The notes under the pieces were generated by a model. The model saw only the letters and a program-made list of their open reading frames with translations, did no database searches and was not told the DNA's origin. This document shows, piece after piece, positions 19,095 to 19,187 of a stretch of 64,000 nucleotides of DNA. This DNA comes from Escherichia coli (GTDB taxonomy: Bacteria; Pseudomonadota; Gammaproteobacteria; Enterobacterales; Enterobacteriaceae): NCBI RefSeq assembly GCF_003790525.1, contig NZ_CP033635.1. The stretch is one strand, 5' to 3'. Numbering within the stretch: position 1 is the first letter of the stretch; the number at the start of each line of letters is the position of its first letter. The translations under genes were made by a program, and so were the position numbers.

Positions 19095-19187
19095 AGACGC
19101 TTACTCATCAGAAATCTGGTATGCTTTAATTAAACCAGTGTCGCTGATGTGTAAGCGTTGACGTTGGGAGGCGATTAAATGGTTATA
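19095..19187 (+). repeat. Conserved downstream element, copy 1: long imperfect hairpin (cgcttactcatcag...ctgatgtgtaagcg), likely terminator/RNA structure
   Basis: ~90-bp segment ~55 bp after the ORF A stop, largely identical to the segment after ORF B; outer and inner (ctggt/accag) stems. Confidence 0.55.

Follow-up and report, generated by a model that had tools for sequence, protein, structure and literature searches.

Why should two effector genes that have drifted far apart end in the same palindrome? The question is raised by an AT-rich island of 7.3 kb, flanked by phoU and yieH, in Escherichia coli SMS-3-5; it lies within the 64,000-nt stretch of DNA analyzed here (the window). The island is the published Z5211-Z5214 locus, which about 20% of E. 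coli carry in place of the bgl operon. According to Sankar et al. (2009; PMC2646131), the genes of this Z island are ORFans, Z5211 is homologous to Z5214, mobilisation functions are absent, the G+C content is 30% and 19% of strains carry the island. The locus is the same as ours, and their 19% compares with the 1108 of 5426 complete E. coli genomes in which we found the palindrome. A search of that paper for the term "hairpin" gave no match.

Two of the three island genes code for type III effectors that converge on a palindrome each, and the third codes for a pentapeptide-repeat protein (Table 1). EspY1-5 form the SopD-like WEX5F effector family of EHEC (PMC6313403), and the second effector gene owes the name espY4 to the annotation of related genomes. 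The EspY5-like protein and EspY4 share 33% of their amino acids. Their family is tiny (41 cluster representatives, three of them full-length, among 1.84 billion proteins), and the same hairpin is found in all the loci that encode its members, which are E. coli-like. A preliminary description of the locus had suggested that the palindrome could be a bidirectional terminator, a processed RNA structure, or a remnant of recombination or attachment.

Table 1. Features of the island and its right border in the window
Feature	Position	Strand	Basis and remarks
EspY5-like type III effector gene	16663..19038	+	RefSeq CDS; longest ORF from 16528; converges on hairpin copy 1
Hairpin copy 1	19095..19161	+	23 bp in four segments, one U·U mismatch, 13-nt loop; covariance model 95.1 bits
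Linker 3' of copy 1	19162..19177		GACGTTGGGAGGCGA + TTA, the relic stop of the decayed yieH
yieH pseudogene remnant	19181..19284	-	Protein and DNA similarity to YieH/yieH
Pentapeptide-repeat protein gene	19508..20695	-	ORF list and annotation
espY4 type III effector gene	20996..23404	+	RefSeq CDS; longest ORF from 20978; converges on hairpin copy 2 and yieH
Hairpin copy 2	23460..23527	+	Arms as in copy 1, interior and loop differ; covariance model 92.7 bits
Linker 3' of copy 2	23528..23543		AAGTAAGGAGGCGA + TTA, the complement of the yieH stop codon
yieH (6-phosphogluconate phosphatase)	23541..24206	-	ORF list and annotation

Structure and setting of the two hairpins

Both elements were found where they had been described: copy 1 opens at 19095 with AGACGC and copy 2, with its linker, covers 23460-23543. 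The conserved block of copy 1 closes with GATTA at 19177, and the end given earlier (19187) takes in another 10 bases that are partly similar. The two copies share an element, as had been proposed, with 79 of 97 positions identical in a BLASTN alignment (81%; E=1e-22); in the outer arms, 35 of 35 positions are identical (100%). The proposed fold was also recovered. From a base of GACGC/GCGUU, a first helix of 9 bp is separated by a U·U mismatch from one of 6 bp; an internal loop, a short helix of 2-3 bp and a bulge lead to the last 5 bp, which are closed by an AU-rich loop of 13-14 nt, for a total of about 66 nt in both copies. The predicted energies of the two copies are about -28 to -32 kcal/mol on the plus strand (-29.7 and -32.0) and about -24 to -32 kcal/mol on the minus strand (-24.5 and -31.7). 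None of 200 shuffled sequences folded as stably, with z-scores of -4.0 to -6.0. The hairpin was retained when both copies were folded in contexts of 221 nt, and RNAalifold returned it as the main consensus structure of 10 flanked copies, the only addition being a 4-bp stem in the linker. Folds of single sequences also pair the flanks, but the 10-sequence consensus contains no long-range pairing, and a larger conserved structure around the hairpin was discarded. The G+C content of the hairpin is 0.40-0.43, which is core-like, whereas the published average of the island is about 30%.

The hairpin is placed between convergent 3' ends in every case, in a gap of about 140 nt. The spacer that separates it from the effector stop codon measures 57 nt for the EspY5-like gene (copy 1) and 56 nt for espY4 (copy 2), with an overall range of 56-61 nt, and on the other side the stop codon of yieH, or its relic, lies 14 nt away at both copies. 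That the final tta of copy 2 is the complement of the yieH stop codon, as first noted, is correct. The GGAGG box reported after the stem is present in both copies of the window; among strains it is only partly conserved and appears as GGAGA, GGAGT, CGGAG or GGGGG. We considered a small ORF behind this box, since an ATG occurs 7 nt downstream of it in copy 1 and opens 18 codons. Copy 2 lacks this ATG and several strains have ATT in its place, and the candidate was rejected.

Conservation of the arms and extent of the repeated unit

The resemblance between the copies could have been the mere by-product of a recent segmental duplication, an objection that had been anticipated. This is not so, as the hairpin is far better conserved than the adjacent paralogs, whose products are only 33% identical; the spacer between effector gene and hairpin can barely be aligned between the copies, and the yieH sequence that follows the linker (see below) shows 74% DNA identity. 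The 97-nt alignment has 18 differences, all of them outside the 35 arm positions, a distribution with a probability of about 1e-4, or of about 3e-5 if the divergence is set at 26%, the level of the yieH remnant. In addition, a metagenome scan anchored on yieH added 27 E. coli-like loci, in which the arms hardly vary.

It could be argued that the hairpin has no function and is the leftover of an old duplication, its arms being identical by chance or through gene conversion. The between-strain diversity is consistent with this, as the hairpins (0.05-0.07) are no better conserved than the neighboring non-effector DNA (0.04-0.10), and so is the lack of compensatory covariation. Chance, however, would have to account for arms of 35 positions that are free of differences when the remaining 62 positions hold 18, and conversion would have to homogenise each arm separately while sparing the ten fixed interior differences that separate copy 1 from copy 2. 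Because of these fixed differences, and because no mosaic haplotype was found among the 29 distinct variants obtained from about 45 loci, gene conversion is an unlikely cause of the identity of the arms. Moreover, the stem polymorphisms found within the species almost all keep the pairing in the plus-strand RNA. An absence of function thus seems improbable to us. No stem pair shows a compensatory double change across the natural variants, so that support for the structure comes from conservation and from one-sided G·U changes. We conclude, from these sequence comparisons, that the arms of both copies are under purifying selection. The two old copies can be compared with each other, and this makes the evidence of selection unusually clear.

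Copy 1 had been said to carry the same junction-like sequence with no yieH beside it. A decayed fragment of yieH does adjoin copy 1, with a relic TAA 14 nt from the hairpin. Positions 19216-19284 encode VDSNGSVSKMHHSLGKLNMLHSY, which matches residues 106-128 of YieH (VVSNGPINKMQHSLGKLKMLHYF) at 15 of 23 positions (E=6e-8; 74% identity at the DNA level, E=8e-9), and positions 19181-19228 show, in another frame, a weak match to residues 205-220 at the C-terminus of YieH (8/16). Together, the two matches suggest an internal deletion of about 230 bp. The remnant is 72-79% identical to every yieH allele tested and is therefore old. As a consequence, the earlier proposal for the duplicated unit, which would run from the upstream element through the hairpin, holds insofar as the hairpin is included, but the repeat does not stop there and takes in the 3' end of yieH. 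As judged from the sequence, the repeat unit is made of the upstream element, an effector gene, a 56-57-nt spacer, the hairpin, a 14-nt linker and the 3' end of yieH. Likewise, the hairpin does stand where hypervariable island DNA gives way to the conserved core, as had been proposed for the island/core junction, and only the accompanying idea that yieH is missing at copy 1 had to be given up. Copy 1 has remained intact beside a dead yieH, which suggests that the function of the hairpin is independent of yieH.

The 3' halves of the effector genes (17600-19000 and 22000-23400) are hypervariable across E. coli strains, with a pairwise diversity of 0.2-0.3 as compared to about 0.04 in yieH, which points to diversifying selection or to old allelic lineages. 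The yieH gene of SMS-3-5 (23541-24206) shares 81.5% DNA identity with that of K-12 (188 of 221 residues identical) and is 96% identical to yieH in some island-free strains, an allelic divergence that is unusually deep for an E. coli core gene.

Distribution and variant architectures

A covariance model of the hairpin had exactly two matches in the 64-kb window. In the complete E. coli genomes that carry it, the hairpin is always inside the island, occurs at most twice per genome and is unannotated. No copy was found in phages, and the sole match among plasmids was NZ_CP141089.1 (PLSDB). This "plasmid" is a 4.9-Mb E. coli replicon and evidently a chromosome. A strict two-arm pattern run against 100,044 species-representative genomes retrieved only mis-binned E. 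coli contigs and an unrelated palindrome from Bacteroides. The former, JAIJJM010000244.1 and JAIJJM010000384.1 (our loci L005 and L006), come from a metagenome-assembled genome labeled Collinsella sp. and represent an E. coli island with both hairpins, that is, a binning contamination. A dispersed repeat or MITE was therefore dismissed, all occurrences being in this island, in no more than two places per genome, and none in phages, true plasmids or other species. A check of the hairpin against Rfam 15 returned no family, the only match, mir-590, being a chance one (23.6 bits, E=0.63; gathering score 65).

It had been asked whether other strains carry the hairpin next to yieH in the absence of the island. 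They do not: island-free alleles of yieH lack it and show no similarity downstream of the gene. The yieH-cbrB intergenic regions of K-12 and Rb-3 were tried as homologs and rejected, as local alignments were no better than those of shuffled sequences (p 0.47-0.88) and the covariance model found no match in them. These spacers hold a different hairpin of their own, together with TTCAC-N6-TTCAC, which we take to be a CreB-type repeat.

Three departures from the usual layout were found. In locus L042 (Logan ERR3329175, positions 1-8135), bglB, bglH, yieL and yieK are kept, and behind them come a single EspY5-like gene, one hairpin and yieH. The EspY5-like protein of this locus is 52% identical to that of the window. 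The single hairpin has a left flank that resembles copy 1, and its interior and right flank are of the copy 2, or yieH-proximal, type; near its left edge, the identity to the window rises from 68% to 97%. The type of the hairpin thus tracks yieH rather than the effector gene in L042, which fits an origin on the yieH side and speaks against a role tied mainly to the effector transcript. In a second arrangement (L045/L044, positions 4919-4923), a deletion joins positions 17812 and 20914 of the window and removes the 3' half of espY5, hairpin 1, the yieH remnant and the pentapeptide-repeat gene. In a third (L002, positions 2156-2919), only a fragment of espY5 is present, with no copy 1. The last two deletions are independent. 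The island is thus eroding in some lineages, in which espY4, hairpin 2 and yieH are kept, and, as far as these sequences go, the junction of hairpin and yieH is constant and the left side of the island variable.

These observations amend the picture of the bgl and Z5211-Z5214 alternatives in two respects: the duplicated module includes a piece of yieH, and a hybrid arrangement of bgl genes plus an effector gene exists, which bears on the question of which order of the locus is ancestral. Neither the yieH remnant nor the hybrid appears in the available text of the published locus description (PMC2646131).

The same data bear on the suggestion that the element is a DNA relic: effector cassettes would have been inserted or duplicated at the 3' end of yieH by way of an attachment site, a recombination site or the terminus of a mobile element, of which the hairpin would be the remnant. 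We regard this as very unlikely. Direct repeats, each made of the hairpin and the 3' fragment of yieH, do flank a 4.3-kb segment with the pentapeptide-repeat gene and espY4 in an attL/attR-like manner, and the single hairpin of L042, with a left flank like copy 1 and an interior like copy 2, is what recombination between the copies would leave. Ordinary homologous recombination, however, explains L042 equally well. Furthermore, the ORF list and the annotation show just three genes in the island and no integrase, transposase or recombinase, in line with the lack of mobilisation functions in the published account of the locus (PMC2646131). The restriction to a single locus, with never more than two copies per genome, and the age of the repeats (81% and 74% identity, with no mosaic variants) also argue against such a site. 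Cores of the attC type (RYYYAAC, GTTRRRY) and target-site duplications were looked for in the sequence by eye, and none was seen.

Strand of action and formation of transcript ends

We then asked which of the two possible RNAs the hairpin might serve. The preliminary description had mentioned a bidirectional terminator, but in its canonical form this does not agree with the flanks of the stem. The stem-loop is stable and contains G+C, as intrinsic terminators require, although its terminal loop of 13-14 nt exceeds the typical 3-8 nt. The U-rich tract that should follow the stem is missing on the plus strand, where the tails ACGUUGGGAGG and AAGUAAGGAGG score 0.2-0.4, and is weak on the minus strand, where the tail of copy 1, CUUUUUGUAUA (CUUUUUG), scores 2.5 and that of copy 2, CUAUUCCCUGU (CUAUUCCC), scores 1.2; the trp terminator scores 4.2. 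A consensus scan called a terminator at neither copy. The view that the hairpin is a canonical intrinsic terminator is not supported.

Natural variation leans, suggestively, towards the effector-sense (plus-strand) RNA. Five independent C-to-T changes in the stem, and one T-to-G change at the U·U mismatch, result in G·U pairs in the plus-strand RNA and in A·C mismatches on the minus strand, and only one stem change favors the minus strand, although a count of 5:1 or 6:1 is not significant (p about 0.06-0.11). When 11 haplotypes of copy 1 and 8 of copy 2 were plotted for energy, the plus-strand RNA stayed between -25 and -33 kcal/mol across the variants and the minus-strand RNA went down to -18.5 kcal/mol in stability. 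A composition proxy for rut-like tracts, C-rich and G-poor, detected none just downstream on the plus strand and one on the minus side, which speaks against the plus-strand reading. The hairpin has what is expected of a protective 3' stem-loop, being a stable structure that follows a stop codon and has no U-tract behind it.

The explanation that we favor, with a probability of about 0.45 and thus tentatively, is that the hairpin is a stem-loop that defines or protects the 3' end between convergent genes, mainly on the effector transcript and possibly on both strands. What the sequences show is the fold of the hairpin, where it lies, its restriction to one locus and the purifying selection on both arms of both copies; the strand on which it acts and its part in the formation or stability of 3' ends are inferred. 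According to this model, the AT-rich effector gene would be transcribed past its stop codon, and the 23-bp hairpin would fold 56-57 nt downstream. Because a U-tract is lacking, release of the transcript would depend on Rho or on a head-on collision with polymerases coming from yieH. Trimming by 3'-to-5' exonucleases would then proceed back to the base of the hairpin, which would fix the end of the mRNA and restrict antisense transcription that runs on into yieH. In the minus-strand RNA, a weaker hairpin, followed in copy 1 by a short U-run, could end the transcripts of yieH and of the pentapeptide-repeat gene; the transcript of the latter would cross the yieH remnant and then copy 1.

Known systems offer partial parallels. 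Ju and co-workers reportedly described, in 2019, bidirectional terminators and collision sites between convergent genes. Like a bidirectional terminator, the island element is one palindrome in a convergent gap of some 140 nt and can fold on both strands; in the classical ones, however, the stem is flanked by an A-tract and, on its other side, by a U-tract, whereas here an A-run is found to the left of copy 1 only and a plus-strand U-tract at neither copy. According to Wang et al. (2022; bioRxiv 10.1101/2022.10.23.513370), stem-loops set the place at which polymerases collide, and terminate, between convergent genes. In E. coli, the ends of Rho-dependent transcripts lie immediately downstream of stable stem-loops that have no U-tract and that shield the RNA from PNPase and RNase II (Dar and Sorek, 2018; PMC6061677). 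The island hairpin resembles these protective stem-loops (PMC6061677) in its stability, its location soon after a stop codon, the lack of a U-tract on the effector strand and the untranslated stretch in which it lies and which would be open to Rho. It differs from them in being much longer (66 nt, 23 bp, a loop of 13-14 nt) and in having no rut-like, C-rich tract directly downstream on the plus strand. That it is much longer, with a larger loop, than typical protective or terminator stems speaks against the explanation that we favor. With REP/BIME elements it shares an imperfect palindrome, a 3' intergenic location and a possible role in mRNA stabilisation. REP elements, however, measure about 35-40 nt, are GC-rich and number in the hundreds, as compared to 66 nt, 40-43% G+C and at most two copies per genome at a single locus, and no similarity to them was found in Rfam or in sequence. 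In the Sakai intergenic study, transcript ends of these genes were looked for and none was found. We conclude that the hairpin is real and selected, that it is undescribed in the searchable literature and that it is of a known, fairly ordinary kind.

If the favored explanation is true, the island would add one more case in which AT-rich, horizontally acquired genes are insulated from a converging core gene by a stable stem-loop and not by a canonical terminator. The practical gain would be modest: the likely 3' ends of espY4 and espY5 would be defined for expression studies, and the hairpin would provide a precise marker of the boundary between island and core.

Conversely, the hairpin could belong to yieH, as its own terminator or 3'-UTR hairpin on the minus strand, and could have been duplicated with part of that gene. 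Copy 1 would now end the transcript of the pentapeptide-repeat gene, and the place of both copies after the effector genes would be incidental. This is conceivable but doubtful. A yieH stop codon or its relic lies 14 nt from each copy, and in L042 the hairpin beside the EspY5-like gene is of the copy 2 type, with the 97%-identical core starting near its left edge. The core-like G+C content of the hairpin (0.40-0.43), as opposed to about 30% for the island in PMC2646131, is also in favor of such an origin, as are the CUUUUUG tail of copy 1 (2.5) and the C-rich, G-poor tract on the minus side. It is the copy beside the functional yieH, however, that has the weaker U-tract (CUAUUCCC, 1.2), and the stem variants create A·C mismatches in precisely this RNA, at a cost in stability down to -18.5 kcal/mol. 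The negative result of the terminator scan at both copies and the absence of the hairpin from island-free yieH alleles, whose downstream region is dissimilar, also argue against it.

It also seems possible, if unlikely, that the hairpin acts as a regulatory RNA: an RNase III site, as in the retroregulation exerted by lambda sib, the source of a 3'-UTR small RNA, or a site for protein binding. The interrupted duplex of 23 bp is, we presume, of the size of an RNase III substrate. Conservation at the level of the sequence, including the U·U mismatch, which is kept in 15 of 18 variants, and a GGAG that is mostly conserved in the linker would agree with recognition of this sort. Against it stand the lack of an Rfam match, the absence of a U-rich, Hfq-type tail on the plus strand and the variation of the complete GGAGG box among strains; directly upstream, no convincing promoter was seen by eye and the consensus scan found none. 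A more specific version, to which we assign a still lower probability, is that the hairpin is a dedicated cis-regulatory 3'-UTR RNA of the EspY4 and EspY5 mRNAs, kept base for base since an ancient duplication and read by RNase III or another RNA-binding protein. If so, it would be a previously undescribed 3'-UTR control element for type III effectors.

Two further elements were seen on the 5' side of the island genes. At the left end of the island, immediately behind phoU (16134-16195, plus strand), the Rfam family naRNA4, a REP-derived RNA, gives a weak match of 33 bits where its gathering score is 59.5; an ordinary REP element is the probable source. In addition, a 21-nt motif, AAAATGAGCGNTTTTTTAYAG, occurs upstream of all three island genes, at 16411-16431 (+), 20861-20881 (+) and 20755-20775 (-), and is also present in L042. 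It precedes the start codons of the two effector genes by about 100-130 nt and that of the pentapeptide-repeat gene by about 60-80 nt, and both effector-gene copies have a small hairpin (CCAGGGT..ACCCTGG) on their 5' side. Possibly, the motif is a shared promoter or operator of the island genes.
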